From positions 6,485-70,484 of the forward strand of contig JAQUQN010000002.1 of the NCBI GenBank assembly GCA_028716065.1: a stretch of 64,000 bases of DNA. The letters are read 5' to 3'. Both the position numbers and the translations under genes were made by a program. This DNA comes from Candidatus Omnitrophota bacterium (lineage in GTDB: Bacteria; Omnitrophota; Gorgyraeia; 2-01-FULL-45-10). Below are positions 11,600-37,295 of the stretch, piece after piece. Each line of letters starts with the position of its first letter. Positions within the stretch are counted from its first letter, which is position 1. The notes beneath the pieces are model-generated. The model was not told the DNA's origin. It searched no databases and was given only the letters and a program-made list of their open reading frames with translations.

Positions 11600-12565
11600 A
11601 TGCCTACCCGTAAAGTTGATTCTAAATTACACAAAATAAGGGACTCCGCAAAGATCTTGAAAGAGTCTCTCGAAAGATGCAGCATCTGTCCGCGCAGATG
11701 CGGCATAAACAGGATCAGAGGAGAGAGGGGTTACTGCAGGGCCGGGCTGCAACCAGCAGTATATAGCCATTCTCCTCACCATGGAGAGGAGCCGCCTCTC
11801 TCAGGGACGCGGGGCTCCGGCACCATATTCTTTACTTATTGCAACATGAAGTGCGCCTATTGTCAGAATTATTACTTCAGCCAGCTCGGGCACGGCGTGG
11901 AGATATCCATAGAAAAGCTTTCCGAGATAATGCTCGGGCTTGAAAAACACGGATGCCATAATATAAATCTCGTAAGCCCGACCCATTTCGTACCGCAGAT
12001 AGTGATGGCGCTGGAGATGGCCGTTGGCAAGGGACTGGATATACCGATCGTCTATAATAGCGGCGGATATGACCTGCCGCGGACATTACGCCTGCTTGAA
12101 GGTATTGTCGATATATACATGCCCGACATGCGGTATAGCGACGACAATACCGCAAAAAAGTATTCGGATGCGGAAGACTATGTTAAATATAACCGCGGTT
12201 CCGTGATGGAGATGCAGCGGCAGGTCGGAGATCTCTTACTCGACGAGAATGGTATCGCCGAAAAAGGGTTGATCGTCAGGCTTCTGGCGCTGCCGCAAGA
12301 GCTGTCCGGTATAAAAGAAAGTTTAAAGTTTATAAAAGACAGGGTCAGCGGAAACGCCTACCTGAGTATCATGAGCCAGTACTACCCTACATATAAGGCC
12401 TATGATTTTAAAGAGCTATCGCGCGGCGTGACGAAGGAAGAGTATAAGAATGTTGTTGACGAGGCAAAGAGATTAGGGTTAAATAATGGTTGGATACAGG
12501 AGAGGCCCCGACAGCAAGACGTTACTTTCCTGGGTACAAACATAAAACCAAAAAGGGAAATTTAA
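11600..12565 (+). CDS. Radical SAM protein (PflX / PFL-activase-like)
   Basis: CNMKCAYCQN radical-SAM cluster motif, about 320 aa. Confidence 0.8.
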   Translation: MPTRKVDSKLHKIRDSAKILKESLERCSICPRRCGINRIRGERGYCRAGLQPAVYSHSPHHGEEPPLSGTRGSGTIFFTYCNMKCAYCQNYYFSQLGHGVEISIEKLSEIMLGLEKHGCHNINLVSPTHFVPQIVMALEMAVGKGLDIPIVYNSGGYDLPRTLRLLEGIVDIYMPDMRYSDDNTAKKYSDAEDYVKYNRGSVMEMQRQVGDLLLDENGIAEKGLIVRLLALPQELSGIKESLKFIKDRVSGNAYLSIMSQYYPTYKAYDFKELSRGVTKEEYKNVVDEAKRLGLNNGWIQERPRQQDVTFLGTNIKPKREI

Positions 12566-12566
12566 G

Positions 12567-13280
12567 ATGCCTGAGAAGGAAAATAAAGGCGCTTCTTACG
12601 CCAGGCAACTGGAAGCGATCTCGAAGGTCAGCAAGACCATCACATCCGGACTATATCTGGAAGAGATCCTGAAACTCATCGTAACCGTGACGGCGGAGAT
12701 AATGAACTCAAAGATATGTTCACTGATGCTGTTAGATGAGAAGAGCAACATGCTCGTGCTCAAGGCAACGCAGTCGATGAGCGAGGTCTATAATAAGAAG
12801 TCCCCCTTGAAGGTAGGCGAGGGCATTGCGGGCAAGGTCGCGCAACAGAACAGCCCTATGGCAATATATGATATAGCCAAGGAGGCGGAATATAAAAATA
12901 AGGACATAGCAAAAAAAGAAGGATTAAAATCCCTTCTATCCGTCCCTCTGGCAGTAAAGGGCAGGGTAATAGGCGTACTCAATAATTACACTTCTCACCC
13001 TCACAAGTTCATTAAAAGCGAAGTCGAACTTCTGACCACGGTAGCAAACCAGGCTGCCATAGTGATAGAAAACGCGGCGCTGATGCTAAAAGCGAAGGTC
13101 ATGCAGGACGAACTTGAGACCAGAAAAACGGTCGAAAGGGCCAAGGGGGTACTGATGCGCACCCAGGGCCTTTCCGAAGAGGAGGCGTTCAGAAAGATAC
13201 AGAAACAGAGCATGGACATGAGAAAAACGATGCGCGAGATTGCCGAGGCCATCCTGCTTCTCGAGAAGATGAAATCCTGA
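12567..13280 (+). CDS. GAF-ANTAR RNA-binding antiterminator-type regulator (paralog 1)
   Basis: GAF-like N-terminal two-thirds (GEGIAGKV...VPLAVKGRVIGVLN). C-terminal ANTAR signature (ERAKGVLMRTQGLSEEEAFRKIQKQSMDMRKTMREIAEAI). Confidence 0.85.
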   Translation: MPEKENKGASYARQLEAISKVSKTITSGLYLEEILKLIVTVTAEIMNSKICSLMLLDEKSNMLVLKATQSMSEVYNKKSPLKVGEGIAGKVAQQNSPMAIYDIAKEAEYKNKDIAKKEGLKSLLSVPLAVKGRVIGVLNNYTSHPHKFIKSEVELLTTVANQAAIVIENAALMLKAKVMQDELETRKTVERAKGVLMRTQGLSEEEAFRKIQKQSMDMRKTMREIAEAILLLEKMKS

Positions 13281-13315
13281 CCCATGTTAGGCAATAAAAA
13301 GTTGCTACTTTATGA

Positions 13316-13343
13316 TTGACAGAATCTGAAAATATGGTATACT
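13316..13343 (+). promoter_or_regulatory. Sigma70-type promoter (TTGACA-N16-TATACT, TGn) for nadE leader
   Basis: Exact -35. Followed by two leader terminators. Confidence 0.6.
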
Positions 13344-13361
13344 TATTATGAAGAGACAAGG

Positions 13362-13398
13362 ATGTCTTTCGGCAAAGTATGCTGAAAGACATTTTTTA
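13362..13398 (+). terminator. nadE leader terminator 1
   Basis: 13-bp stem ATGTCTTTCGGCA / TGCTGAAAGACAT (one G.U), loop AAGTA, then TTTTTT. Confidence 0.75.
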
Positions 13399-13408
13399 TA
13401 GACTAGGG

Positions 13409-13448
13409 CGTCTAGATCCGATATTGCGGATATAGGCGTTTTTTGTTT
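13409..13448 (+). terminator. nadE leader terminator 2
   Basis: CGTCTA-g-ATCCG-atattg-CGGAT-a-TAGGCG (11 bp, one G.U), then TTTTTTGTTT. Ends 12 nt before the nadE ATG. Confidence 0.55.
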
Positions 13449-13460
13449 ATAGGCGGTTTT

Positions 13461-15143
13461 ATGAAGAGAAATATGCGTTTTGCGATAGCCCAGATCGATT
13501 GTTGTGTAGGCGATTTTGAAGGCAACCTTAAGAAGATGACGGCCTGCCTTCAACAAGCCAAGCAGACGGGGGTGGATATTATAGCCTTTCCGGAACTTGC
13601 TGTGACGGGCTATCCCCCTGAAGATCTCCTCCTCAAGGCCAGATTCATAGATGAAAATCTGGAGACCTTGAGAAAGTTATCCAGGTCCGTAGAAGACGTG
13701 GTGGCCGTTATAGGTTTTGTCGACAGGATAGGCTCGGATATATATAATGCGGCAGCGGTAATATATAAAGGCAAGGTGCTAGGAAAATACTATAAGATGT
13801 TCTTGCCCAATTACGGCGTATTCGATGAGCACAGGTATTTCAGGCAGGGTAAGGAACCAATAGTATTCAAGTGGGGCGATCTGGTATTCGGTGTCAATAT
13901 ATGCGAGGACATATGGCATGAGGATGGGCCCACCCGCGCCCAGGCTTCTAGAGGCGTGAAGGTCATAATAAATATCAACGCCTCGCCTTATTACAGCGGA
14001 AGGATCAGGGAAAGGGAGGAGGCCGTAAAAAGCCAGGCAATAGAGAATAAGGTCCATGTGGTTTACGCCAATCTCGTAGGAGGACAGGACGAACTGATCT
14101 TCGATGGCCAGAGCATGATAGTGGATAATAACGGAAAGATAATAAAAAAGGCCGAGGCCTTCAAGGAAGACTTGCTTATTGCTGACCTGGAGATACCGGA
14201 AAACTCTGAAAGATTGAAGGACCTTTATATTACTATCGGTGATAGCGTACCTCCAAAAGATAAGCCTGGTCTGGTCCGGAAAGAGGTAAAGCAGTTAGAC
14301 CCTGTTAGCGAGGTATATGAAGCGCTGGCCCTGGGATTGAGGGACTATGTGACCAAAAACGGTTTTAAAAAAGTGGTTCTCGGATTAAGCGGAGGGATAG
14401 ACTCGTCCCTCGTTGCCTCCATAGCAACGGATGCCATGGGCAAGGACAATGTTATCGGAATTTACATGCCTTCCCGCTACTCTTCATCCGATTCGGAAAA
14501 TGACGCCAAAAAACTGGCTGCGAATCTAGGCATACAGCTTTTGACCATAAGTATCGAGCAGATATTTAAAATATCCCTGATGTCGCTGGACCCTAAATTT
14601 TCCGGACTGGCCAAAGATTCGACCGAAGAGAACCTTCAGGCGCGTATAAGGGGAAACATCCTGATGGCACTTTCAAATAAATTCGGGTGGCTGGTATTGA
14701 CAACCGGAAATAAATCGGAGATGAGCACGGGTTATTCTACATTGTATGGCGACATGGCAGGAGGACTGGCCGTTATAAAGGATGTCCCCAAAACTTTAGT
14801 TTATAAACTGGTTAAATACAGGAATACGGTGAGCGCTGTGATACCCGAGTCGGTGATCAAAAAGGAGCCCACGGCTGAACTGAAACACGACCAAAAGGAT
14901 AGAGACACCCTGCCTCCCTACGATGTGCTGGATCCTATCCTGAAGGCATATGTGGAGGATGATAAGGGACTGAAGGAAATAGTGGCATTGGGTTTTAACA
15001 AGGATACCGTATGCAAAGTCCTGAACATGGTCGATAGAAGCGAATATAAACGCCGCCAATCGCCTCCGGGTTTGAAGATAACCCCTAGGGCGTTCGGCAG
15101 GGACAGGAGAATGCCGGTTACCTCTAGATATAAAGAATATTAA
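13461..15143 (+). CDS. nadE: Glutamine-dependent NAD+ synthetase (CN-hydrolase + NAD synthetase domains)
   Basis: N-terminal nitrilase-like domain (FPELAVTGYPPEDL, NICEDIW). C-terminal SGGIDSS PP-loop. Start chosen at ATG 13461. Confidence 0.9.
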   Translation: MKRNMRFAIAQIDCCVGDFEGNLKKMTACLQQAKQTGVDIIAFPELAVTGYPPEDLLLKARFIDENLETLRKLSRSVEDVVAVIGFVDRIGSDIYNAAAVIYKGKVLGKYYKMFLPNYGVFDEHRYFRQGKEPIVFKWGDLVFGVNICEDIWHEDGPTRAQASRGVKVIININASPYYSGRIREREEAVKSQAIENKVHVVYANLVGGQDELIFDGQSMIVDNNGKIIKKAEAFKEDLLIADLEIPENSERLKDLYITIGDSVPPKDKPGLVRKEVKQLDPVSEVYEALALGLRDYVTKNGFKKVVLGLSGGIDSSLVASIATDAMGKDNVIGIYMPSRYSSSDSENDAKKLAANLGIQLLTISIEQIFKISLMSLDPKFSGLAKDSTEENLQARIRGNILMALSNKFGWLVLTTGNKSEMSTGYSTLYGDMAGGLAVIKDVPKTLVYKLVKYRNTVSAVIPESVIKKEPTAELKHDQKDRDTLPPYDVLDPILKAYVEDDKGLKEIVALGFNKDTVCKVLNMVDRSEYKRRQSPPGLKITPRAFGRDRRMPVTSRYKEY

Positions 15144-15187: not shown

Positions 15188-15231
15188 AGCCCTTTATGCG
15201 CAAAGTAGGCGTGTAAAGGGCTTTAGTTTTT
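15188..15231 (+). terminator. nadE 3' terminator
   Basis: AGCCCTTTA / TAAAGGGCT, 9 bp, 17-nt loop, tail TTAGTTTTT. Confidence 0.65.
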
Positions 15232-15240
15232 ACAAGGCTG

Positions 15241-15789
15241 GTGATAAGAATGAACTTAAATTTCGAAACGCTCGTCAATAGAATAACGCCCACGCTGAAA
15301 AGGATAACGCACCGGCTTAACGGCCATTTTACCTTTTTCGACGACGATGATCTATACCAGGAGGCCGTGACATATCTATGGCCGCTCTTCCAAAGAGGCA
15401 GACTTGGCGACAAGACGGACAGTTATATCCTACAGGGCTGTTATTTTCATCTTAAAAATTATATACGCACCTCGATGGACAAGGCCAAATTGATAAGCAT
15501 CTATAAGATAATAGATGCTGACGAAACCGAGCTTGGCGCGGTCCTGGCCGCGAAGGAGACGCCGGATCCGGAAAATCTGGAATACAAGATATTACTGAAA
15601 GAATCGGATAGGATGGGCCTGACGGAAAAGGAAAGGCGCGTTATATCATATTCATTGGAGGGACTTACTACAAGAGAGATAGGCGACCGCCTCGGTGTAT
15701 CTCACGTAATGGTGCTAAAGATAAAGGGAAAGATCAAACATAAGCTGCGTATTTTCAGAAATGAATACCGGAGAGGTTACCAAAATTAG
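15241..15789 (+). CDS. Sigma-70 family (ECF-like) RNA polymerase sigma factor
   Basis: Region-2-like DDLYQEAVTYLW. Region-4 HTH LTEKERRVISYSLEGLTTREIGDRLGVSHVMV. Confidence 0.7.
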   Translation: MIRMNLNFETLVNRITPTLKRITHRLNGHFTFFDDDDLYQEAVTYLWPLFQRGRLGDKTDSYILQGCYFHLKNYIRTSMDKAKLISIYKIIDADETELGAVLAAKETPDPENLEYKILLKESDRMGLTEKERRVISYSLEGLTTREIGDRLGVSHVMVLKIKGKIKHKLRIFRNEYRRGYQN

Positions 15790-15814
15790 GCATTTTTTAC
15801 TTGTAGAATCGTAG
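15774..15814 (+). promoter_or_regulatory. Conserved 41-nt box, copy 1 (upstream of porin-amtB-glnK)
   Basis: AGGTTACCAaAaTtAgGCATTTTTTACTTGTAgAaTcGTAG. 34/41 identical to 18917-18957. Contains a TAnAnT -10-like hexamer. Overlaps the sigma-factor stop codon. Confidence 0.6.
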
Positions 15815-15849
15815 CCTTGGCAACAAAGGCTAAAGACACATAGAAGTGT
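15812..15849 (+). promoter_or_regulatory. Tandem leader hairpins (amtB operon leader)
   Basis: TAGCCTT-GGCAACA-AAGGCTA and, 3 nt later, ACAC-ATAGAA-GTGT. The second has a hexaloop with A at position 1 and G at position 4, as in ANTAR target loops. Confidence 0.45.
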
Positions 15850-15859
15850 AAAAATGACG

Positions 15860-15896
15860 AAGGCGTTTGGAAGATAAAACGCCTTTTATTTTTTTC
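15860..15896 (+). terminator. amtB-operon leader terminator a
   Basis: AAGGCGTTT-ggaagata-AAACGCCTT then TTATTTTTTT. The 5' arm carries ACGAAGGCGTT. Confidence 0.75.
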
Positions 15897-15908
15897 ATAG
15901 TGGACAGG

Positions 15909-15956
15909 GACGTCTATTCTAATCCGAGGAGGAAAGGAGAGGCGTCTTTTGTTTTT
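15909..15956 (+). terminator. amtB-operon leader terminator b (weaker)
   Basis: GACGTCT / AGGCGTC (7 bp, one G.U), 24-nt loop, tail TTTTGTTTTT. Confidence 0.4.
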
Positions 15957-15975: not shown

Positions 15976-17292
15976 ATGAGTCTTAATACAAAAAACATAC
16001 TTAGCGGTCTTGTGGTGTCTCTCTTTATAATCATCAGTTCCTCTACGGCGGTATTTGCGAATGAGATAGAGGAGCTAAGAAATGAGATAAAGATGATGAA
16101 GGAGAAGCTTAGCGCCATGGAGGCGAGATTGCAGCAATCCGAGGCAAGGGCCGCAGACGCCGAAAAACCAAAAACTGGACCGGAAGGGACTATTACGGAC
16201 GCCATCACCTCGATTACTAAGGAGATAGAGTTTCATGGTTTTGTAGACACTTCCTATATATTCAATACGAATACGCCTGTACCTCCCAACCCCAGGACTA
16301 ACAACCTCCGGGTATTCGATACGGACGCCAATGGATTCATGCTCAACATGGCACAATTGAGCTTTGAAAAGACCGTATCGAAAGAATCACCCCTGGGCTT
16401 CAGGGTAGACCTGGATTTCGGCCAGGACGCAAAACTCATACACTCAAACGGCCTTGGCAATCCCGGAGACGAATTCGACCTTGAGCAGGCATATGCACAG
16501 TTCTGCATCCCATTCAGCCTTCCTTTAATGGATACGTTGAGTTTCAAGTTCGGCAAATTCGTCACGTTAATGGGCGCGGAAGTCATTGAATCCGTCAATA
16601 ACTGGAATTTTTCCAGGTCGTACCTTTTCGGTTACGCGATACCGTTCACGCATACGGGCTTGAGGGCCTATTATAAACCCTTCGCGGACATACCGGTCGA
16701 ATCGTACATCGGCATAGTCAATGGATGGGATCAGGTGGACGACCTTAACCGGGCCAAGACGCTGGAAGCCCAGATAGCCGTAACACCTAACGATAAGCTA
16801 TCGTTTTCGTTGGGAGGCATGTTCGGTCCGGAGAGGGCGGATTCCAATAAGGATTTCCGGGACCTTATAGATTTCGTCATAACCTACCAGCCTCTTGATA
16901 AGTTGACTTTAAAAGCCAACTATGACTACGGGTGGGAGAGGAATGGCACGTCGGCCTTCGCCGGCTATACAGACGGCAAGGACGCATCCTGGGATGGTGT
17001 TGCCGGTTACGCCAAATATGATATTTTCGACTGGTGGTCGATCGCCGGCCGCGGTGAATTTTTCCATGACAGGAACGGCGTAAGGACAGGCGTCCTTACA
17101 AGTTCTACGATGCCCATCTCCGACCTGGCTGTCTGGGAATTCACACTTACCAATGAATTCAAGATATTTAAAAATTTCATAGCGAGATTTGAATATAGGT
17201 TCGACAAGGCAAGCGGTCAGGCCTTCACGAAAAACAAGACTACCGCTAATAATCAAAGCACTATAGCTGCTGAAGTAATAACCAAGTTTTAA
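15976..17292 (+). CDS. Outer-membrane beta-barrel porin with N-terminal coiled coil
   Basis: Signal peptide, heptad-like segment, alternating beta-strand pattern and a C-terminal Phe. Sits first in the operon with amtB-glnK. Confidence 0.6.
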   Translation: MSLNTKNILSGLVVSLFIIISSSTAVFANEIEELRNEIKMMKEKLSAMEARLQQSEARAADAEKPKTGPEGTITDAITSITKEIEFHGFVDTSYIFNTNTPVPPNPRTNNLRVFDTDANGFMLNMAQLSFEKTVSKESPLGFRVDLDFGQDAKLIHSNGLGNPGDEFDLEQAYAQFCIPFSLPLMDTLSFKFGKFVTLMGAEVIESVNNWNFSRSYLFGYAIPFTHTGLRAYYKPFADIPVESYIGIVNGWDQVDDLNRAKTLEAQIAVTPNDKLSFSLGGMFGPERADSNKDFRDLIDFVITYQPLDKLTLKANYDYGWERNGTSAFAGYTDGKDASWDGVAGYAKYDIFDWWSIAGRGEFFHDRNGVRTGVLTSSTMPISDLAVWEFTLTNEFKIFKNFIARFEYRFDKASGQAFTKNKTTANNQSTIAAEVITKF

Positions 17293-17314: not shown

Positions 17315-18550
17315 ATGATCAATTCCGGAGATACTGCGTGGATATTGATTTCGACGGCGCTCGTCATGATGATGACTGCGCCGGGTTTAGCGTTCTTTTA
17401 CGGTGGGCTGGTGCGGAGGAAAAACGTCCTCGCCACCATGATGCAGTCTTTCTTCGTACTGTGCCTGATCAGCATCCAGTGGATCTTGTGGGGCTATAGT
17501 CTTGCCTTTGGTCCCGATAAGGGCCATTTCATAGGTAGTCTCGCGTGGTTCGGTCTGAAAGGAGTGGGGATGGCGCCAAATCCTGATTACGCCGCGACCA
17601 TTCCGCATCTATTATTTATGGCATATCAGATGATGTTCGCAGTGATCACGCCCGCCCTGATAACAGGGGCTTTTGCTGAAAGAATGAAATTCTCCGCATA
17701 CGTCGTCTTTACCTTATTATGGGCAACTTTCGTATATGACCCCGTCTGCCATTGGGTATGGGGTACAGGCGGATGGTTAAAAGAGATGGGGGCCCTGGAC
17801 TTCGCAGGCGGCACAGTGGTCCATGTCTCATCAGGCATAGCTGCCCTCGTATGCGCGCTCGTATTAGGAAAACGGCGAGGATATGGCAATGAACCGATGC
17901 CTCCTCATAACTTGCCATTAACCGTCCTTGGGGCCGCGCTATTGTGGTTCGGATGGTTCGGATTTAATGCTGGTAGCGCATTAGGGGCCAACGAATTAGC
18001 CGTGACGGCTTTCATCGCTACAAATACGGCGGCTGCTGCGGCGGCACTTACATGGATGGCCATTGAATGGAACACTATCGGAAAGCCTACCATACTTGGC
18101 GGGGCTACGGGCGCTGTGGCGGGGCTTGTCGCAATAACGCCTGCCGCCGGCTTCGTCTCTCCGATATCCGCCATCTTCATAGGGATCATAGTAGGCCTGG
18201 TATGCTATACAGCTGTCGCCATCATTAAATTAAAACTTTCTTATGATGACAGTCTCGATGCTTTTGGCGTTCATGGTGTCGGCGGAGCAGTGGGTGCCCT
18301 GGTAACTGGGCTTTTCGCGCAGAAGATAATAAATCCCGGAGGGAGCAACGGGCTATTTTTCGGCAACCCTTCACAGCTAGCCACTCAAGCCATCGGTGTC
18401 ATAGCCACCATGGCATATTCGATCGCCGTAACATTCATCTTACTCAAAGTCCTTGATGCGGTCATGGGGCTGCGTGTTTCCGAAGAAGACGAGGTGGCCG
18501 GACTCGACATAACGCAACACGAGGAAAGCGCCTATACATTGTTAGACTAG
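17315..18550 (+). CDS. amtB: Ammonium transporter
   Basis: 411 aa polytopic protein with Amt signatures (DFAGGTVVHVSSG, FGVHGVGG). Confidence 0.95.
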   Translation: MINSGDTAWILISTALVMMMTAPGLAFFYGGLVRRKNVLATMMQSFFVLCLISIQWILWGYSLAFGPDKGHFIGSLAWFGLKGVGMAPNPDYAATIPHLLFMAYQMMFAVITPALITGAFAERMKFSAYVVFTLLWATFVYDPVCHWVWGTGGWLKEMGALDFAGGTVVHVSSGIAALVCALVLGKRRGYGNEPMPPHNLPLTVLGAALLWFGWFGFNAGSALGANELAVTAFIATNTAAAAAALTWMAIEWNTIGKPTILGGATGAVAGLVAITPAAGFVSPISAIFIGIIVGLVCYTAVAIIKLKLSYDDSLDAFGVHGVGGAVGALVTGLFAQKIINPGGSNGLFFGNPSQLATQAIGVIATMAYSIAVTFILLKVLDAVMGLRVSEEDEVAGLDITQHEESAYTLLD

Positions 18551-18562
18551 GAGGAGGTAGAA

Positions 18563-18904
18563 ATGAAACTGATAATCTCTATAATACAGCCGCATAGGCT
18601 TGAAAAGGTGCTGGAAGAATTGAACAAATCGGGAATCAGCCTGAGGACCGTATCCAACGTCCTGGGTTGCGGCAGGCAGAAAGGCCACACCGAGGTATAT
18701 CGCGGGAGGAAAGAGACGGGTAACCTTCTTAAAAAGGTACGCCTCGAAATTGCCGTCAATGAAGATTTCGTGGAACCTACGGTCAGGGCCATCATAAAAG
18801 GGGCAAAGACCGGAGAGATCGGAGACGGGAAGATATTTATAGCCGATCTGGCCGAATGCATAAGGATACGGACCGGGGAGAGGGGCGGCGAGGCGATAGG
18901 GTAA
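18563..18904 (+). CDS. glnK: P-II nitrogen regulatory protein
   Basis: 113 aa with T-loop [12 protein letters not shown] (Tyr51 retained) and DGKIFI. Directly downstream of amtB. Confidence 0.9.
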
Positions 18905-18916
18905 ACTTTAAAAAAT

Positions 18917-18957
18917 AGGTTACCAGAGTAACGCATTTTTTACTTGTATAGTTGTAG
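18917..18957 (+). promoter_or_regulatory. Conserved 41-nt box, copy 2 (upstream of glnA)
   Basis: AGGTTACCAgAgTaAcGCATTTTTTACTTGTAtAgTtGTAG, starting 13 nt after the glnK stop. Confidence 0.6.
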
Positions 18958-18967
18958 GGTATTAATA

Positions 18968-18983
18968 GGCACGCAGTAGTGCC
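18968..18983 (+). promoter_or_regulatory. Leader hairpin GGCAC-GCAGTA-GTGCC (glnA leader)
   Basis: 5-bp GC-rich stem with a hexaloop. Preceded by TA (TAGGCA word). Confidence 0.5.
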
Positions 18984-19010
18984 CCAAAAATAGGCAAACT
19001 TAAAGAACAG

Positions 19011-19066
19011 AGGCGTTCATTTTGGTCAGCGAGTGATTTGACCGAGTGAGCGCCTTTTTATCTTTT
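19011..19066 (+). terminator. glnA leader terminator
   Basis: 16-bp stem AGGCGTTCATTTTGGTC / GACCGAGTGAGCGCCT (three G.U, one bulge), then TTTTTATCTTTT. Ends 28 nt before the glnA ATG. Confidence 0.7.
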
Positions 19067-19094
19067 ATGCCCCACCACTAAAGGAGGAGTAAAC

Positions 19095-20603
19095 ATGAAA
19101 AAGAAGAAAGAGAAAAAACTAACAGACGTGAGGACAAAGAACCCGCTCATAAACGGCTCTTTCGATGAAAAGGCCGCCCGGGAAGTGATGAAGATGATCA
19201 AGGAGAAGAAGATACAGATCCTTGATCTTAAATTCAATGACCTGCCGGGCCTGTGGCAGCATTTCTCCATACCCGCATCGGAGCTTACGGAGATGGATGA
19301 CCTGACACGCTCTATCTGGGTGGACGGCATAGGGTTCGACGGCTCATCCATACGCGGCTTCCAGAAGATCCAGGAGTCGGACATGATCCTGATCCCTGAC
19401 CCTGCGACAGCCGTAATAGACCCTGTTTGCGAAGTGCCGACATTAAGCGTCATATGCGATATCTATGACCCGCTTACCAGAAAAGCATATACCCGAGACC
19501 CTAGATATATCGCGAAAAAGGCGGAAAAGTACCTGAAGGCATCCGGTATTGCCGACAATGTATACTTCGGGCCGGAGGCTGAGTTCTTTCTCTTCAATGA
19601 CGTCCGCTTTGACCAGACGGAAAACTCGGGATACTATTTTATAGACTCAGTCGAGGCTGACTGGAATACTGGAAAATCCGAAAATCCTAACCTGGGCTAT
19701 AAGATACGGTTCAAGGAAGGATATTTCCCAGTACCTCCGCACGACTCGCTACAGGACCTTCGCAGTAAGATGATCCTAAAGATGATAGAGGCCGGGATCC
19801 CCGTTGAAGTGCACCACCACGAAGTGGCCACAGCAGGACAATGCGAAATCGATATGAAGTTCGACACGTTGACAAAGATGGGCGATAACCTTTTGCTTTA
19901 CAAATATATCATAAAGAACATGGCCAGGAAGAACAACATGGTGGCCACGTTCATGCCCAAGCCGCTCTTTGCGGATAACGGCTCAGGCATGCACTGCCAC
20001 CAGAGCCTGTGGAAAAACGGCGTAAACCTTTTTTACGACAAGAACGGATACGCGCTCCTGAGCCAGACGGCCAAATACTACATAGGGGGGCTTTTAAAAC
20101 ACGCCAAGAGCCTCATGGCGTTCTGCGCGCCGACGACAAATTCTTACAAACGCCTGGTGCCGGGATACGAAGCGCCCGTAAACCTTGTTTACTCTGCCCG
20201 CAACCGGTCAGCGGCGGTAAGGATACCGATGTATTCCGACAGCCCCAAATCGAAAAGGATAGAGTTCAGGCCGCCCGATCCGTCCTGCAACGCCTACATA
20301 GCGTTCAGCGCAATGTTGATGGCGGGCCTTGACGGGATACAGCATAAGATCGATCCCGGCGAACCCGCAGACCAGGATCTATTCGAATTGAATGAGGAAG
20401 AACTGGCGAAGATCCCAACCGTGCCGTCATCTCTGCGCAGGGCTATAGATGCCCTGGAAGAAGACCATGACTACCTTCTCAAGGGCGGCGTCTTCACAAA
20501 AGACGTTATCGATGTATGGCTCGAATATAAACGCAAAAGAGAAATAGACACGGTGAGGATGCGCCCGCATCCATACGAGTTTTATCTATATTTTGATATT
20601 TAA
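19095..20603 (+). CDS. glnA: Glutamine synthetase type I
   Basis: GSI motifs ([32 protein letters not shown]). The adenylylation-site Tyr is replaced (DLFEL). Strong RBS aaaggagg. Confidence 0.95.
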
Positions 20604-20668: not shown

Positions 20669-20854
20669 ATGGATGACAACCTACCCATTTACAGAACGAT
20701 CATAGCGCAGGTTGAAAAACCGCTCATAGAGATGGCCCTGGAGAGAACGAGCGGCAATCAGATCAGGGCCGCCGAACTGTTAGGGATCAATCGTAATACG
20801 ATCCGCACCAAGATAAAAAAACTCGGCATCGACGTCAAGAGATGGAAGGTATGA
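20669..20854 (+). CDS. Stand-alone Fis/NtrC-C-terminal-type HTH protein (61 aa)
   Basis: [26 protein letters not shown] is an HTH_8-type motif. Its stop overlaps the gltB start (ATGA). Confidence 0.65.
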
Positions 20855-23800
20855 ACAAAATGAGACACAACCACTTGCCCGAAAGACAGGGCCTCTATGA
20901 TCCGCGCTTCGAGCATGACTCATGCGGCGTCGGGTTCGTCTGTAATATAGACGGAGTGCGGTCGCACGATGCCGTTCAAAAAGGCCTTGAAGTGCTGAAA
21001 CGGCTCTCGCATCGCGGAGCGACCGGTTCGGACCCGAAAACCGGAGACGGCGCAGGCATACTACTGCAGATCCCGCATGAGTTCCTGCTCAAGGCCTGCG
21101 GGGAAGAAGGTATGGAATTACCGGACGAGGGGAGCTATGGCACCGGCATCGTTTTCCTGCCGACCGATGAGAGAGAAAGAAGGTTCTGCAAGGCCGCCTT
21201 CGCGAAAATAGCTAAGGAGGAGGGACAGGCTCTTTTAGGATGGCGCAAAGTCCCGGTAGACGATTCGGATATAGGCAGAATCGCGAGGGAGACCGAGCCG
21301 GTGATAGAACAAGTCTTCATCGCTAAAAATAGAAGGCTGAAGGATAGGCTGGCTTTCGAACGCAGACTGTATGTTATCAGAAAAGGGGTCGAGAATCTCA
21401 TAAGAACGACCGGCTTAAGGCAGAAGGCCTTCTTCTATATCACCAATATATCCAATCGTACCATGTCGTATAAAGGGCTTCTCATGCCCTATCAATTAGA
21501 AAAATTCTTCATCGATCTAAAAGATAATTCGCTAAAAAGCTCTTTATGCCTTGTTCATTCCCGGTACAGCACGAATACTTTCCCGACATGGGATCTGTCA
21601 CAGCCGTTCAGGTTCCTTGCGCATAATGGCGAGATAAACACATTGCGGGGGAACATAAATTGGATGAGGGCCAGGGAAAAATTACTGAAGAGTAATCTAT
21701 TCGGGCAGGAGATCAAAAATATCATGCCTGTAATCGTTCCGAACGGAAGCGATTCGGCGGCCATAGACAACGTGCTTGAACTTCTGGCACTATCGGGCAG
21801 GTCGCTACCCCATGCCATGGCAATGCTCATACCTTCAGCGTGGGAAGGCGATGGCCTGATGGATGATGAACTTAGAGACTTTTACAGATACCACGCCTGC
21901 ATGATGGAGCCATGGGACGGGCCTGCGGCTATCGCCTTTACGGATGGCACGAGGATAGGGGCAGTGCTGGACAGGAACGGGTTGAGGCCCGCACGCTACA
22001 TGATAACTAAAGGCGGGCTTGTAGTTATGGCATCCGAAGTGGGGGTTCTCGACATAAGACCGGAGGATATATCGGTATCGGGCAGGCTGGAACCCGGTAA
22101 GACGTTCTACATCGATACGGAACTAAAACGTGTGATCGACGATGTGGAGATCAAGAGATCTCTTTCCATGGCACAGCCTTACGGCGACTGGATTAAAAAG
22201 AAGCTGGTCTCTCTCAATGATCTGCCGGAGAGAGGCAATGAACCAAAGCATCCCGAAGATGTCATTACATCCTTAAAGGCGTTTGGTTACACGCGCGAAG
22301 ACCTCAAGACCATACTTAAACCGATGGCGGAGAAAGGTGCGGAACCGATCGGCTCCATGGGAAACGATACGCCCCATGCCGTCCTATCGGCCATGCCTCA
22401 GATACTCTTCAACTACTTCAAACAATTATTCGCCCAGGTAACAAACCCTGCCATAGATCCGATAAGGGAAGAGCTGGTAATGAGCCTGACGGCACTTGTC
22501 GGGCCCGAAAAAGGACTGCTCGATGAGACACCGGAACACTGTCACAAACTCGAGGTGGCCCGTCCCATTCTCTCGGACGGCGAGTTATCAAAAATACGCG
22601 ATATCGCTATAAACGGGTTCAGGACCAAAACCATATCCATATTATTCGACCCTCTTCGAGAAAAAAGTTTCATCGATACGATAGACCACATATGTGAAGA
22701 GTCATCCAGGGCCATAAACGAGGGTTATTCATTCATTATTTTAAGCGATAGGGGCGCGGATATTTCCAAGGCCGCTCTTCCGAGCCTTTTGGCAGTAGGC
22801 GCCGTGCATCATCACCTCGTCAGAAAATCTTCGAGAACCCAGATAGGCATAATCCTCGAGAGCGCCGAACCCAGAGAGGTTCACCATTTTGCGCTCCTTT
22901 TCGGCTATGGGGCGGACTGCATAAACCCTTACCTCGCGTATGAGGCCCTCGGCTATCTGGTAAGAGAAAAAGAACTGGAGATGGATTACGAGAAGGCTCT
23001 CGAAAATTACAGAAAGGCCCTGGAGAGCGGCATATTGAAGGTGCTCTCAAAGATGGGCATATCGACATTGCAGAGCTACCGCGGCGCTCAGATATTTGAG
23101 GCGCTCGGATTGAGCGATGCCCTCATAGAAAAATGTTTTACAGGCACCGTTTCCAGAATAGGCGGTATAGGCTTCGACACAATAGCGAAGGAGTATATCG
23201 CCAGGCACTCTCAAGTCTATCCTGTAAGCGCGGCGTCCCAACCATACCTGCCTACCGGAGGCGTATACCAGTGGAAGAGAGACGGAGAGATCCACCTCTG
23301 GAACCCTGACTCCATAGCTGCGTTGCAGGATGCCGCCAGGACCAACGATAATAAAAAGTACTCGGAATTCGCTGGATTGATAAACGACCAATCGAAAGGC
23401 CCCTGCACGTTGCGAGGGCTCTTAAAATTCAGAAAAGCCAGGCCCATCCCGATAGAGGAGGTGGAGCCCTCGAAAGAGATCGTAAAAAGATTCGCGACCG
23501 GCGCCATGAGTTTCGGTTCCATAAGCAAGAGCGCTCACGAAGCCATAGCCATAGCCATGAACATGCTCGGAGGCAGGTCAAACACCGGGGAAGGCGGAGA
23601 GGATCCGGCGCGATTCAATCCATTGCCGAACGGTGATTCTGCGAGAAGCGCCATAAAGCAGGTCGCTTCCGGCAGGTTCGGCGTTACCACCAATTATCTC
23701 GTCAATGCGGATGAACTGCAGATAAAGATAGCCCAGGGGGCAAAACCCGGAGAAGGCGGGCAGCTGCCCGGCCACAAAGTGAGCGCCATCATAGCGCGGA

Positions 23801-25389
23801 CCAGGTATACCACGCAAGGCGTCACCCTCATATCGCCGCCTCCGCACCACGACATATATTCCATCGAGGACCTTGCGCAGCTCATATTTGACCTGAAGAA
23901 CGTCAATCCTAAAGCCCGAATAAGCGTTAAGCTTGTATCGGAGATAGGGGTGGGCACGGTCGCCGCGGGTGTCGCCAAAGGTCATGCCGACATGATACTG
24001 ATCTCGGGCGGAGACGGGGGAACCGGCGCATCGCCTCTCAGTTCCATAAAACACGCGGGCCTCCCGTGGGAACTCGGCCTTTCGGAGACACATCAAACTC
24101 TGGTCCTGAACGACCTGCGCAGCAGGGTCAGGCTGCAGACGGACGGACAGATGCGCACGGGCCGCGACATCGCCATCGCCGCCTTGCTGGGAGCGGAAGA
24201 GTTTGGCTTCTCTACCGCGGTACTGATAGTCCTCGGATGTGTGATGTTGAGGCATTGCCACCTGAATAATTGTTCCGTGGGAGTCGCCACGCAGGACGCC
24301 ATCCTGCAGAATAGGTTCAGGGGAAGGCCTGAATATATAATCAACTACTTCTATTTCGTCGCGCAAGAACTGAGAGAGATAATGGCCGGGCTGGGTATTC
24401 GCCGCGTTGACGACATGATCGGCAGGACGGATCTATTGCTGGTCGATAAGACGGCCTTGACCTGGAAGACCAAAGGGCTGGATTTTTCAAGAATGCTGTA
24501 CAAGGCCGGAACGAAGAGGCCGGACACCAGATACCATGTTATGCCTCAGAAGCCTGCAATGCACGGGGAATTGGATTCAGAACTCATCAAACTCTCAAAA
24601 GATGCGATAGGCAATAGAGCACCTGTAAAACTCTCCATGGGCATAAAAAATAGCAATAGGACTGCCGGCGCCATGTTGAGCGGAGAGGTGTGCAGGGTAC
24701 ATGGGGAAGGCGGCCTGCCTGATGATACCGTATACTGCAAATTCAAGGGTGTAGCCGGCCAGAGCTTCGGCGCCTTTCTCTCCAAAGGAATAACATTTGA
24801 ACTCGAAGGCATGGCGAACGATTATGTGGGCAAGGGTATCTCCGGCGGGAAGATCATAATATATCCGGACAGGAGAGCGGGTTATGACGCCAGCAGGGGC
24901 ATCATCATCGGAAATACGACATTTTACGGCGCCATAAGCGGTGAGGCATATATAAGGGGGACCGCGGGAGAAAGGTTTTGCATAAGGAATTCGGGGCTGA
25001 ATGCCGTCGTAGAAGGCACCGGTGACCATGGATGCGAATACATGACCGGAGGAAGGGTTGTCATTCTGGGAAAAACTGGAAGGAACTTTGCCGCTGGGAT
25101 GTCTGGCGGCATCGCGTATGTTTACGATCCGAAGAGAGATTTTAAAGATAGGTGCAACATGGAGATGGTAACCCTGGAAAGCATAAATTCCGACGATGAG
25201 ATGACGATCGGCGAGCTGCTATCCAACCACCACAGGTTCACCGGCAGTACATTGGCCAGAGAGATACTGGACGACCTTAAATCCAGGTTAAAGAGCTTTA
25301 TCAAGGTCATGCCGATAGAATACAAGCGTATCCTGGAAAGCAAAGAGCTAGAGGAAGATTTGAATCTCGTAGAGGTGTCAGATGGGTGA
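20851..25389 (+). CDS. gltB: Glutamate synthase large subunit
   Basis: About 1510 aa. N-terminal Ntn Cys (HDSCGVGF), FMN domain and C-terminal GXGXG domain. Start set at the ATG of the ATGA overlap. Confidence 0.95.
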
Positions 25390-26827
25390 TCCGAGAGGAT
25401 TTTTGAAAGTAAAGCGGGAAGGCTCTCCATATAGACCCGTATGTGAACGCGTTAAGGATTACAAAGAAGTATCGGCGCCGAGAGACGACGAACGTTCCAA
25501 GGAACAGTCTTCGCGTTGCATGGATTGCGGAACGCCCTTCTGCCACTGGGCCTGCCCGGTCGGTAATTATATCCCGGAATGGAACGACGCGATGTTCCAC
25601 GGCCACTGGAAAAAGGCCATAGACCTACTGCATGCGACGAACAATTTTCCGGAGATAACGGGGCGGTTGTGCCCGGCGATGTGCGAATACGCCTGCGTAT
25701 TGGGTATAAACGACGACCCTGTTACGGTAAGAGAGAACGAACTGGCCATCATAGAGCATGGGTTTAGACAGGGCATCATAAAGGCGTCTGGGCCCGCGAA
25801 GCGCAGCGGAAAACGTATCGCCATAATAGGCTCGGGCCCTGCAGGGCTGGCCTGCGCCGACCAATTAAATAAAGCGGGACACGAGGTGACGGTCTATGAA
25901 AAAGACGACAGGGCCGGAGGAATATTACGATACGGCATACCGGACTTTAAACTGGAAAAATGGGTCCTGGACAGGCGGCTCGATATTTTAAAAAAAGAAG
26001 GCGTAAAACTCATAACCTCGGTCAATGTTGGAACCGATATCACCATTTCCGAACTGCGGAAAGGTTTTGACGCCGTCTGCCTGGCCGGAGGCAGCCGCGT
26101 TCCGAGAGACCTGAAGATCGAAGGAAGGGAATTGAAAGGTATACATTTCGCCATGGACTTCCTGGTGCAGGCGAACAGGATGGTAGCTGGAGAAAAGATA
26201 CTGGAAGATAAATTCATAGACGCTAAGGGCAAAAGGATAGTCGTAATAGGCGGAGGCGATACGGGATCTGACTGCGTCGGTGTATCGCACCGTCACGGCG
26301 CAAGCTGCGTAGTCCAGATCGAACTGTTACCTCAGCCGTCAGAATCCCGCACCGGGGAATATAACTGGCCGAAATATCCGCTTCTCCTCAAGAGATCCTC
26401 CAGCCATGAAGAAGGGGGCGAGCGCAACTGGTCGATACTCACGAAGCGGCTTATCGGAGTAGACGGACGCGTGAAAAGATTGTCCTGCGTCCGCGTCAGT
26501 TTTGACCAAAAAGACGAGCGAGGCCGTCCGCTCATGAGGGAACTACCCGGAAGCGAGTTCGAGATAGAGGCCGATCTGGTAATATTGGCTATGGGTTTTG
26601 TACACCCGGAGCACGACATCCTGCTCGATGCGCTCGGCGTAAAACTGGATCCGTACGGAAATGTGGCCACGGATGACAAGTACATGACTTCGGCCAAAGG
26701 CGTATTCTCGGCCGGCGACATGAGAAGGGGGCAATCCCTGATCGTCTGGGCCATATCGGAAGGCCGCCGCTCAGCCCACGCCATCGATAAATACCTTATG
26801 GGTTCAAGCAACCTGCCGGTAGTCTAA
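25382..26827 (+). CDS. gltD: Glutamate synthase small subunit (NADPH)
   Basis: Cys clusters (CMDCGTPFC, CPAMCEYAC) and the dinucleotide fold IAIIGSGPAGLACA. Confidence 0.95.
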   Translation: MGDPRGFLKVKREGSPYRPVCERVKDYKEVSAPRDDERSKEQSSRCMDCGTPFCHWACPVGNYIPEWNDAMFHGHWKKAIDLLHATNNFPEITGRLCPAMCEYACVLGINDDPVTVRENELAIIEHGFRQGIIKASGPAKRSGKRIAIIGSGPAGLACADQLNKAGHEVTVYEKDDRAGGILRYGIPDFKLEKWVLDRRLDILKKEGVKLITSVNVGTDITISELRKGFDAVCLAGGSRVPRDLKIEGRELKGIHFAMDFLVQANRMVAGEKILEDKFIDAKGKRIVVIGGGDTGSDCVGVSHRHGASCVVQIELLPQPSESRTGEYNWPKYPLLLKRSSSHEEGGERNWSILTKRLIGVDGRVKRLSCVRVSFDQKDERGRPLMRELPGSEFEIEADLVILAMGFVHPEHDILLDALGVKLDPYGNVATDDKYMTSAKGVFSAGDMRRGQSLIVWAISEGRRSAHAIDKYLMGSSNLPVV

Positions 26828-32852: not shown

Positions 32853-32869
32853 TAGTTGATTAAAAATTA

Positions 32870-32886
32870 GGCACAAAGTCAGTGCC
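32870..32886 (+). promoter_or_regulatory. Leader hairpin GGCAC-AAAGTCA-GTGCC (GAF-ANTAR-2 leader)
   Basis: Same stem as 18968-18983 and a related loop (AGT-A). Preceded by TTA (TAGGCA word). Confidence 0.5.
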
Positions 32887-32902
32887 ATAATGAGAAAGGA
32901 CG

Positions 32903-32933
32903 AAGGCGTTCGAAAGAACGCCTTTCTCTTTTT
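32903..32933 (+). terminator. GAF-ANTAR-2 leader terminator 1 (may also end the gdhA transcript)
   Basis: AAGGCGTTC-GAAA-GAACGCCTT then TCTCTTTTT. The 5' arm carries ACGAAGGCGTT. Confidence 0.65.
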
Positions 32934-32973
32934 AGACAACCTTTCTCTTTCAACGCGGAAAACCTGGATAAAG

Positions 32974-33018
32974 ACGTCCGATCTGGCAGTATCATAATGC
33001 CGGAGAGGGCGTTTTTTT
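32974..33018 (+). terminator. GAF-ANTAR-2 leader terminator 2
   Basis: ACGTCCGATCTGGC / GCCGGAGAGGGCGT (12 pairs including two G.U, tandem G-A internal loop), then TTTTTTT. The 5' arm carries AAAGACGTCCG. Confidence 0.7.
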
Positions 33019-33025
33019 ATGAACG

Positions 33026-33070
33026 AAGGCGTTCTGTGCCGATAAACGGCGCATTGCGCCTTATTTTTTT
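33026..33070 (+). terminator. GAF-ANTAR-2 leader terminator 3
   Basis: Outer AAGGCG/CGCCTT plus inner TGTGCCG-ataaa-CGGCGCA, then TTATTTTTTT. The 5' arm carries ACGAAGGCGTT. Ends 10 nt before ATG 33081. Confidence 0.7.
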
Positions 33071-33080
33071 AGGTGACGCC

Positions 33081-33776
33081 ATGTCATACGAAGAACAGAT
33101 AAAGGCATTATCACGGATAAGCAGGGCCATAGCATCCGATCAATACCTGGAAGATATCCTACGCCTCATAGTCACGGTAACCGCGGAGATGATGGGTTCG
33201 AACATATGTTCGCTCATGCTGCTGGATGAGAACAGGAATGAGCTCATCATAAGGGCGACTCAAAGCGTAAGCGATGCATACAATAAAAAACCACCAGTAA
33301 AAATAGGCGAAGGCATAGCAGGCAAGGTATTCAAGGAGAAGGTGCCGGTAAAGGTCCTTGACGTGCGCAAAGATAAAAATTACATAAGCAGGAGCATAGC
33401 GAAGAAAGAAGGGCTGTGCTCGCTCCTGTGTGTACCCCTGATAGTCAAGAATAAGGCCATAGGGGTCCTAAATTGCTACACATCGAAACCCCGCGATTTC
33501 AGCGAGACGGAGACGAATATCCTGGCGACCATCGCCAATCAGGCGGCGGTAGCCATAGAGAATACGGAATTGATGGTCAGGAGCAAGGTCATACAGGAAG
33601 AGCTGGAGGTACGTAAGAAGATAGAACGCGCCAAGGGCATCATAATGAAGAGGGAGGGATTGAAAGAGGAAGAGGCCTATTTAAAACTCAGGAAATACAG
33701 TATGGATAGCCGTAAGACGATGCGCGAAATAGCGGATGCCATCATTCTTACGGAGGATTTAAGCAAGAAATTATAA
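33081..33776 (+). CDS. GAF-ANTAR RNA-binding antiterminator-type regulator (paralog 2)
   Basis: Roughly 55% identical by eye to 12567-13280. ANTAR signature ERAKGIIMKREGLKEEEAYLKLRKYSMDSRKTMREIADAI. Start at ATG 33081, downstream of the leader terminators. Confidence 0.85.
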   Translation: MSYEEQIKALSRISRAIASDQYLEDILRLIVTVTAEMMGSNICSLMLLDENRNELIIRATQSVSDAYNKKPPVKIGEGIAGKVFKEKVPVKVLDVRKDKNYISRSIAKKEGLCSLLCVPLIVKNKAIGVLNCYTSKPRDFSETETNILATIANQAAVAIENTELMVRSKVIQEELEVRKKIERAKGIIMKREGLKEEEAYLKLRKYSMDSRKTMREIADAIILTEDLSKKL

Positions 33777-35542: not shown

Positions 35543-35556
35543 GAGCCCGTAACGGT

Positions 35557-35584
35557 TTGACATATTAAAAAAATGTGATATACT
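35557..35584 (+). promoter_or_regulatory. Sigma70-type promoter (TTGACA-N16-TATACT, TGn) for pyrG-carA-carB(N-half)
   Basis: Exact -35 and extended -10 TGa. Confidence 0.6.
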
Positions 35585-35619
35585 GTTCGAGTAGCTCAGA
35601 GCGGATCTACTATAAAAAC

Positions 35620-37294
<1,675 letters not shown>

Positions 37295-37295
37295 C

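Follow-up and report, generated by a model that had tools for sequence, protein, structure and literature searches.

We analysed a 64-kb stretch of DNA from a Candidatus Omnitrophota bacterium (contig JAQUQN010000002.1 of assembly GCA_028716065.1, positions 6,485 to 70,484 of the forward strand; 64,000 nucleotides, hereafter the window), with a focus on the region upstream of glnA, the gene of a type I glutamine synthetase. The window carries a nitrogen-assimilation cluster whose listed genes, assigned with Pfam, all lie on the + strand (Table 1); two GAF-ANTAR genes lie inside it. Between glnK and glnA are a 41-nt box, two hairpins (P1 and P2) and an intrinsic terminator, followed by the ribosome-binding site (RBS) and ATG of glnA, and a second copy of the box precedes the porin-amtB-glnK operon. 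A preliminary description of this DNA had reported the box and its repeat, the first hairpin, and a strong RBS with the ATG, and all of these were found as described.

The homologues of GlnA are 74–89% identical to it, and the named ones come mostly from Candidatus Omnitrophota metagenome-assembled genomes (MAGs). In its segment DQDLFEL, the enzyme has Phe at the position of the adenylylated Tyr of E. coli GlnA, whose corresponding segment we take to be DKNLYDL; the earlier remark that the adenylylation Tyr is lacking was thus correct. For comparison, 80 loci encoding GlnA relatives were fetched, out of 160 fetched loci in all. The box occurred at most 320 nt upstream of glnA in approximately 28 of the 80 loci, nearly all labelled Omnitrophota, and 21 of these approximately 28 passed a strict dual-hairpin pattern. 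Directly 3′ of glnA and overlapping the start of gltB is a 61-aa helix-turn-helix (HTH) gene, whose product resembles the DNA-binding domain (DBD) of NtrC and is a candidate DNA-binding partner in the nitrogen regulon.

Table 1. Features of the nitrogen-assimilation cluster and of the glnA upstream region, in window positions.
Feature	Position	Strand	Basis
Radical SAM gene	11600-12565	+	Pfam
GAF-ANTAR 1, candidate antiterminator	12567-13280	+	Pfam ANTAR E = 3.5e-22, GAF_2 E = 1.9e-21
nadE, glutamine-dependent	13443-15143	+	Pfam
Small two-domain sigma-70-family (ECF-like) sigma gene, candidate box reader	15250-15789	+	TIGR02937, Pfam, fold, box adjacency
Box copy 1, putative promoter of porin-amtB-glnK operon	15774-15814	+	Repeat, core pattern
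Sister leader of porin-amtB-glnK	15833-15886	+	Covariance model
Sister leader P1, ACAC-AUAGAA-GUGU	15836-15849	+	Sequence
Sister leader P2, GAC-GAAGGC-GUU	15856-15867	+	Sequence
Sister leader terminator	15859-15886	+	Terminator scan, fold
Second hexaloop-terminator module of porin leader	15899-15949	+	Sequence
OmpL-type porin	15976-17292	+	Pfam
amtB	17315-18550	+	Pfam
glnK	18563-18904 (stop 18902-18904)	+	Pfam
Box copy 2, probable complete alternative-sigma promoter of glnA	18917-18957	+	Repeat and consensus
Box copy 2, -35-like GTTACC	18919-18924	+	Consensus
Box copy 2, -10-like ACTTGT(A)	18942-18948	+	Consensus
Box copy 2, conserved GTAG (predicted start ~G18954 to A18956)	18954-18957	+	Inferred
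P1 hairpin (putative recruitment), 5-bp GGCAC/GUGCC, hexaloop GCAGUA	18968-18983	+	Sequence, folds, covariance model
Linker P1-P2, 21 nt	18984-19004	+	Alignment
P2 hairpin (putative antitermination), 4-bp GAAC/GUUC, hexaloop AGAGGC (A1, G4)	19005-19018	+	Alignment, covariance model
Intrinsic terminator stem, 20 bp, bulged U19023, five G.U, 8-nt loop 19030-19037	19009-19057	+	Fold
Terminator U-rich tract, begins inside 3′ arm; tail after stem UUUUUAUCUUUUAU	19055-19066	+	Sequence
glnA RBS AGGAGG	19082-19087	+	Sequence
glnA start codon ATG	19095-19097	+	Sequence
glnA, type I glutamine synthetase, 502 aa, regulated gene	19095-20603	+	Pfam; TIGR00653 676 bits
61-aa Fis-type HTH gene	20669-20854	+	PF02954 E = 8.7e-17
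gltB and gltD	20842-26827	+	Pfam
Further redox and gltD-like genes, and gdh	after gltB/gltD	+	Pfam
GAF-ANTAR 2	32997-33776 (open reading frame as called)	+	PF03861 E = 7e-20; 58% identical to GAF-ANTAR 1
Glutamate-synthase-like gene	after GAF-ANTAR 2	+	Pfam
pyrG, carA, carB-like gene	35681-40035	+	Pfam

The two copies of the box share 83% identity, and the copy before glnA begins 12 nt 3′ of the glnK stop. Their core, GGTTACC-N8-GCATTTTTTACTTGTA, is exact in both and found nowhere else in the window, with 0.00 occurrences expected from shuffles. The preliminary description had left the box unexplained; comparison of its instances revealed the anatomy of an alternative-sigma promoter. A T-rich spacer of 17 bp separates the -35-like and -10-like elements of the glnA copy, and 50 instances gave the consensus aaa..gGTTACCAAAa-N7-tTTTTTACTTgTA. 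The spacing GTTACC-N17-ACTT was present in 93 of 98 distinct cases, the other five having N16. Distances from ACTTGT to P1 ranged from 7 to 35 nt and were never below 7 nt, as predicted for a promoter starting 6–8 nt downstream, and a conserved GTAG or GTAA occupies the predicted start position. GC-rich contigs keep GTTACC and ACTTGTA while the T-tract and the following TAnnnT decay, the latter becoming TAGTCC or TAATCC. By pattern search, the box turned up before many ANTAR-type leaders; the MAGs that carry it bear labels of at least five phyla, including Elusimicrobia, Firestonebacteria, Latescibacterota, and Syntrophorhabdus.

Since other ANTAR-type leaders in the window have near-consensus TTGACA-N17-TATAAT promoters, the box appears to represent a separate class of promoter in this organism. 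It also occurs without an ANTAR leader in some lineages (L030, L035, L036, and L077), indicating that the two are separable modules. Scanning the glnK-glnA spacer for canonical sigma70 promoters returned none, and the sigma54 -24/-12 pattern (TGGCAC-N5-TTGCW, GG-N10-GC) had no match at up to two mismatches in 18850–19100. Over the whole window this pattern gave 13 matches versus 21 expected by chance, and GG and GC in the box are 13 nt apart. Site patterns for NtcA, TnrA/GlnR, and NrpR were likewise absent upstream of glnA. These results uphold the earlier proposal that glnA is not under NtrC-, GlnR- or NtcA-type control. Two other roles for the box were considered and rejected. An RNA element disagrees with the variable distance to P1, a 17-nt spacer without covariation, and an overlap with the sigma stop codon in three frames; a constraint from sigma coding disagrees with the intergenic position of copy 2 and with reading frames that differ between genomes. 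The box is probably a promoter with sigma-70-family geometry, its start predicted near 18954–18956.

Copy 1 of the box overlaps the last codons of a gene for a small sigma factor resembling the extracytoplasmic function (ECF) group. The protein aligned over its full length to the ECF superfamily model TIGR02937 (41.9 bits, E = 7.6e-11) and matched PF04545 (region 4) with 26.4 bits, above the cutoff of 24.1. In its AlphaFold model (predicted local distance difference test score 78.6), 30 of the 30 top PDB fold matches were sigma factors, among them Mycobacterium sigma L and sigma H and E. coli sigma E. Sigma70_r2 and Sigma70_r4 were each detected in 10 of 11 aligned members of the family, the window protein being the one aligned member without a Sigma70_r2 match. 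Judged from these data, the protein is of the architecture that has region 2 and region 4 only, at approximately 170–200 aa. An NCBI record from an Omnitrophica MAG has the identical sequence, and the protein belongs to a family of at least 2,106 protein clusters, which are named at most "sigma-70 family". No specific NCBIfam family matched it, no published description of the family was found, and the main text of the 2021 ECF reclassification makes no mention of nitrogen, ammonium or ANTAR. No anti-sigma gene was noticed beside the sigma gene, and no search for one was made.

Association with the box extends beyond the window. In the glnA-selected loci, 11 of 11 further sigma homologues are followed, as in the window, by the box, an ANTAR leader, and porin/amtB within 0–70 nt on the 3′ side. 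In 12 of 12 of these loci the box coincides with the sigma stop codon or directly follows it. As an independent test, metagenomes were scanned with the sigma alignment alone, yielding 77 evaluable loci. In at least 50 of the 77, the box lies at the stop codon of the sigma gene, mostly starting 13 nt before the end of the open reading frame, and approximately 10 more contain GC-rich variants that were seen by eye and lie outside the pattern. Sigma gene and box overlap in three reading frames (…GYQN and stop, …VTK.., and …GLPK and stop); because the frames differ, the box is conserved as a DNA signal and not as protein. Taken as candidates, the ECF-like sigma of 15250–15789 is the most likely reader of the box, a pairing that we favor with moderate confidence.

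Several observations count against this pairing. The sigma protein scores 41.9 bits on TIGR02937, below the cutoff of 42.9. The link between sigma and box is a genomic association, and the box lies downstream of the sigma gene, unlike the upstream site in classic autoregulated ECF systems. Loci L044, L063, L074, and L075 (Elusimicrobia and Syntrophorhabdaceae/Syntrophorhabdus MAGs) have the box followed by P1-P2-terminator leaders and are without a sigma homologue within their 6-kb flanks. Finally, a TAtaaT-like hexamer follows ACTTG in AT-rich genomes (positions 29–31: T 86%, A 86%, T 72%).

This hexamer would allow a different reading, in which the box serves as an operator, bound by an activator or repressor, and the housekeeping sigma acts at the TAtaaT-like sequence, the conserved 61-aa HTH protein being one candidate regulator. 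Where the box precedes glnA, 20 of 25 loci indeed encode an HTH homologue 3′ of glnA, compared with only 6 of 47 loci that lack the box there, but this association is confounded by phylogeny. Moreover, the position 17 bp upstream of TAtaaT holds CAAAAN and no -35-like hexamer, and TAnnnT is the part that decays in GC-rich contigs, whereas GTTACC-N17-ACTTGTA is kept. The -35/17-bp/-10 geometry of the two blocks in 93 of 98 cases and the physical overlap of the box with the sigma gene, in glnA-selected as well as sigma-selected loci, also favor a sigma-read promoter, and we regard an operator as unlikely.

Downstream of the box, the GGCAC-GCAGTA-GTGCC hairpin proposed earlier is present, although it is not a separate item but P1 of an ANTAR motif whose second hairpin, P2, the preliminary description had missed. 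P1 formed in all minimum-free-energy folds and by itself contributes -8.9 kcal/mol. The loop and 3′ arm of P2 double as the base of the terminator 5′ arm, which starts at 19009, the first base of the P2 loop. Alone, P2 reaches only -3.1 kcal/mol versus approximately -27 to -36 kcal/mol for the terminator; given this weakness, termination is likely the default, and a stabilizing factor would be needed for the alternative. The terminator itself is real, with the G.U pairs and U-rich tail ascribed to it, but measures 20 bp with five G.U pairs rather than 16 bp with three. Its folding energy of -27 kcal/mol corresponds to z = -4.9, with no shuffle folding as well, and 19009–19066 combines the stable, G-C-bearing stem and immediate U-tract of intrinsic terminators. 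A simple terminator scan of the window did not list the 19009–19057 stem, probably because of its bulge. Rfam 15 at gathering thresholds gave no match in the whole window, glutamine riboswitches included, and in E-value mode only chance matches to hairpin families (e.g., miRNAs) in 18880–19110. A strong intrinsic terminator, set within a conserved leader, thus precedes glnA, which makes attenuation the best interpretation of its control, as had been proposed.

The linker holds CCAAAA and the conserved UAGGCA (18991–18996; consensus AAAWUUAGGCA). The sequence of the 5′ flank and arm of P1 (UUAGGCAC) recurs in the AAAWUUAGGCA motif, which is conserved in glnA-type leaders only; a similar stretch, AGGCAA, is found in the Geobacter GnfR box CAGGCAANGGCGCC.

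Targets of ANTAR proteins have been described as two hairpins of at least 3 bp with hexaloops bearing A1 and G4, separated by a variable linker, the second hairpin overlapping the terminator (PMC3369931, PMC8934654). The glnA leader displays a 5-bp P1, a 4-bp P2, a 21-nt linker, hexaloops with G4, and mutual exclusivity of P2 and terminator, together with A1 in the P2 loop (AGAGGC). A covariance model was trained on 31 leaders, all taken from genomes other than that of the window. On the + strand of the window, this model matched the glnA leader at 18966–19020 (44.0 bits, E = 8.9e-10), the porin-amtB-glnK leader at 15833–15870 (27.7 bits, E = 1.4e-5), and the GAF-ANTAR 2 leader at 32868–32913 (23.8 bits, E = 1.4e-4), with weaker matches before gltD-like genes (29.1 kb) and pyrG-carA (35.6 kb). 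In the sigma-selected loci it found 46 dual-hairpin matches, all on the sigma (+) strand. Of the 85 distinct dual-hairpin leaders in the 160 loci, 81 have the first pair of the terminator helix exactly at G4 of the P2 loop, with a U-tract at the end of the helix. The terminator base shows compensatory changes, in that pair 2 is G-C in 62, A-U in 10, and G.U in 9 cases, and pair 3 is C-G in 75 and U-A in 6. ANTAR genes accompany the motif in related loci too, and the dual-hexaloop motif indicates that the preliminary description pointed to the right family when it singled out both GAF-ANTAR proteins. From these sequence features, we conclude with high confidence that the glnA leader is an ANTAR-type antitermination switch.

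Some features argue the other way. The P1 loop of the window (GCAGUA) begins with G, so that A1 is missing from the glnA P1, and A1 is important in the EutV system (PMC3369931). Among the 31 relatives, 25 have A at position 1 of the P1 loop, 5 have G, and 1 has U, which makes the window a minority variant; the P2 loop begins with A in 29 of 31, and the leader selection set no requirement on the first loop base. In addition, G4 and the inner stem pairs were prescribed by the regular expression used to choose the training leaders, for which reason the stem-pairing statistics are partly circular and the conservation of G4 is not independent. The inner stem pairs never vary among the training leaders, an invariance that would also fit sequence-specific protein contacts, by analogy with the closing-pair contacts reported for EutV targets (PMC3369931).

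A simpler attenuator had been suggested in the preliminary description, in which CCAAAAAU (18984–18991) pairs with AUUUUGG (19019–19025) as an antiterminator; we take this scheme to work without a dedicated RNA-binding protein. A 6-bp helix between CCAAAA (18984–18989) and UUUUGG (19020–19025) does exist and is compatible with P1 and P2. It surrounds P2 in the co-transcriptional minimum-free-energy fold truncated at 19026 and could add stability to the read-through form in this genome. This pairing is, however, specific to the genome and shows no conservation signal in 23 related leaders, in which the best helix between linker and post-P2 sequence averaged 4.35 bp compared with 4.36 ± 0.16 bp when permuted, 275 of 500 controls being at least as high. 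The upper stem of the terminator varies freely between genomes, the helix is worth only approximately -1.7 kcal/mol beyond P1 (-10.6 versus -8.9), and the scheme brings no sensing mechanism. By this comparison, the CCAAAA:UUUUGG helix is fortuitous or, at most, an embellishment confined to this genome, and not a conserved switch, and an attenuator that works through it alone is very unlikely.

It is also very unlikely that GGCAC-N6-GTGCC is a DNA palindrome for a dimeric factor, such as an NtrC-like site, and not an RNA hairpin. GCAC-N6-GTGC resembles the NtrC consensus TGCACC-N5-GGTGCA, with a spacing one base pair less, and a stand-alone NtrC-DBD-like protein is encoded after glnA (TIGR01818, E = 2.5e-11). 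In the 31 leaders, though, the outer P1 pair is G-C in 17, G.U in 7, A-U in 7, and A.C in none (Fisher p = 0.0013); that all seven non-Watson-Crick cases are G.U, when both mismatches were allowed, points to selection on RNA and not on a DNA palindrome. The P1 loop is also asymmetric, with a conserved A..G.. like that of ANTAR targets, and P1 always lies between the predicted start and a terminator bearing the second hexaloop at its base. As for the 19009–19066 hairpin being a mere 3′ terminator of porin-amtB-glnK, with glnA expressed from a separate constitutive promoter, it does lie 3′ of glnK and no other terminator parts the two genes, but the 28 nt from U-tract to ATG, RBS included, leave no room for a promoter, a promoter-like box stands upstream of the terminator, and the box-P1-P2-terminator cassette precedes glnA where the upstream gene is not glnK (L007, L017, and L023), so that this reading has next to no probability.

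Taken together, the data make it likely that a two-layer switch precedes glnA, combining sigma-dependent initiation with GAF-ANTAR antitermination. The sequence elements, the mutual exclusivity of P2 and terminator, the conservation, and the genomic associations are direct observations; which protein binds the RNA, where transcription starts and terminates, which sigma reads the box, and which signal acts are deduced, and this weighs against the proposal. In the first layer, the ECF-like sigma would initiate transcription at the box, near 18954–18956. In the second, the nascent RNA of an approximately 140-nt leader would by default fold into the 20-bp terminator, and transcription would stop in the U-tract before the RBS. 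An active GAF-ANTAR dimer would bind the P1 hexaloop hairpin and then capture and stabilize the weak P2, which would sequester AGAGGC-GUUC, the base of the terminator 5′ arm; the terminator would be blocked, and RNA polymerase would read into glnA. Transcripts coming from porin-amtB-glnK would pass the same gate, since no terminator lies between glnK and the box. The preliminary description had considered control at the level of transcription as possibly the main input to glnA; the promoter anatomy of the box suggests that initiation is probably regulated too, and attenuation therefore need not be the main input.

The arrangement further suggests a cascade, in which a sigma70 promoter with an ANTAR leader would drive nadE and sigma, and the sigma promoter with an ANTAR leader would in turn drive amtB-glnK and glnA. 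In the window, nadE and the sigma gene sit behind a TTGACA-N17-TATACT promoter and two hexaloop-terminator modules, and in L019, L021, and L027 a sigma70-type promoter and ANTAR-type leaders directly precede the sigma gene. Because such promoters and leaders stand before nadE/sigma or sigma itself, sigma synthesis appears to be ANTAR-gated; with the sigma-dependent operons gated again, the circuit appears to be a coherent feed-forward. A terminator-like hairpin in the nadE/sigma gap (15188–15222) has a 14-bp stem followed by UUUAGUUUUUA and an apical loop AAAGUAG with the A..G pattern, and may gate sigma expression separately. More tentatively, and at slightly less than even confidence, the sigma family could be the nitrogen-control sigma of Omnitrophota and other mostly uncultivated lineages, with a GAF-ANTAR cascade replacing NtrBC/sigma54, GlnR/TnrA, and NtcA.

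The GAF domains of GAF-ANTAR 1 and 2 are closest to those of PtsP (EI-Ntr) and NifA. The PtsP and NifA domains respond to glutamine and 2-oxoglutarate, and on this resemblance either compound is a plausible signal for the GAF-ANTAR proteins. The start of GAF-ANTAR 2 is probably ATG 33081 and not 32997, as 33081 aligns with the N-terminus of paralogue 1; the extra 84 nt (32997–33081) likely belong to the leader, because a terminator and hexaloop hairpins lie there.

The intergenic regions of the cluster repeat one design, an A..G.. hexaloop hairpin whose 3′ half is the foot of an intrinsic terminator. Tandem hexaloop-terminator modules were observed in the porin leader (two), the nadE leader (two; 13405–13442), and the GAF-ANTAR 2 leader (two to three; 32965–33062), the second module following a consensus AGAC-nnAGGC-GUCU ... 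AUCC ... GGAU that recurs in many loci. Near-consensus TTGACA-N17-TATACT promoters with hexaloop-terminator leaders stand before nadE (13310–13442) and the pyrG-carA-carB-like genes (35555–35680). From these positions, the ANTAR regulon seems to include glutamine users besides the ammonium assimilation genes, and the two GAF-ANTAR paralogues might divide these gene classes or respond oppositely.

A second group of Omnitrophota (L010, L024, L026, L029, and L034, with L033 and L038 recognized by eye) lacks both the box and an ANTAR leader upstream of glnA. In their place, approximately 100 nt before the gene, stands a direct repeat, GATTTAACAT-N11-GATTTAACATT, with GTATACTTTTGGCAT and an RBS behind it, which looks like a different, initiation-level control. 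Five of these seven repeat loci (L010, L024, L026, L029, and L038) have a GAF-ANTAR gene approximately 5 kb downstream.

The locus offers GAF-ANTAR proteins a defined regulon and RNA targets, making the question of their ligand, 2-oxoglutarate or glutamine, directly testable. GAF-ANTAR is among the abundant architectures in ANTAR reviews, and a characterized example is described in neither. The probable assignment of the box as a promoter ties it to a large, generically annotated sigma family in MAGs of several phyla; the sigma-promoter pair can be tested and is a possible orthogonal part for synthetic biology. These data also provide a first picture of the regulation of nitrogen assimilation in Omnitrophota, a phylum reported as not isolated in culture (PMC10066038); literature searches on the sequence elements and on ANTAR control in Omnitrophota gave no relevant match.

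Among known systems, the EutV/eutP leader of Enterococcus faecalis is built alike, with two A1/G4 hexaloop hairpins, P1 upstream and P2 in the 5′ arm of the terminator, and with termination as the default and read-through brought about by a dimeric ANTAR protein, as we infer here (PMC3369931, PMC8934654). EutV has a phosphorylated receiver domain, whereas the proteins here have a GAF sensor; the targets here are ammonium assimilation genes, the P1 loop of the window begins with G, and the double use of the P2 loop as terminator stem restricts it to ANNGGC. NasR/nasF of Klebsiella oxytoca likewise has a nitrogen-responsive alternative-sigma promoter tier followed by an ANTAR antiterminator leader of a nitrogen operon (PMC12591593, PMC7496416). 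Its first tier consists of sigma54 and NtrC (GG-N10-GC) and its sensor is a NIT domain, in contrast to GTTACC-N17-ACTTGT with an ECF-like sigma gene on the promoter, and a GAF domain, here.

In Geobacter sulfurreducens, the ANTAR regulator of GnfK/GnfR relieves termination in the leaders of glnK, amtB, and nif and is itself within the cascade, and the leader sequence CAGGCAANGGCGCC resembles the AGGCAA and GGCGUUC elements here (PMC2995071). The Geobacter combination of GnfL/M with GnfK/R also follows the two-tier logic of nasF. There, GnfR is a response regulator driven by RpoN/GnfM promoters and glnB-glnA is without the terminator (PMC2995071), while here the cascade appears to run via a small sigma factor and glnA itself is gated. 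With ECF group 4 sigmas, the sigma factor shares the sigma2-sigma4 architecture, a size of approximately 180 aa, and a probable target promoter, of non-canonical -35/17-bp/-10 geometry, adjoining the gene; that promoter is located at the 3′ end of the sigma gene and not upstream, so that no autoregulation is evident.

Also comparable is the computationally predicted regulon of Desulfotomaculum acetoxidans, a single genome with many ANTAR motifs before genes for P-II, the ammonium transporter, and glutamine/glutamate synthase (PMC3369931). Ramesh et al. predicted ANTAR motifs before glutamine synthase, P-II, and ammonium transporter genes in 2012 (PMC3369931); with those glutamine synthetase motifs predicted and ANTAR antitermination of nitrogen genes established, the attenuator itself is not new. 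The 2012 predictions concerned cultivated Firmicutes and Proteobacteria and had no dedicated promoter (PMC3369931), whereas here Omnitrophota and other candidate phyla carry a conserved, putative sigma-promoter module. The GAF sensor, the small ECF-like sigma that would replace sigma54/NtrC, and the phyla involved set the present locus apart from these systems; by the standards of ANTAR research the attenuator is ordinary, and what would be added, in concrete and testable form, is a module of sigma, promoter, and ANTAR leader shared by uncultivated phyla.

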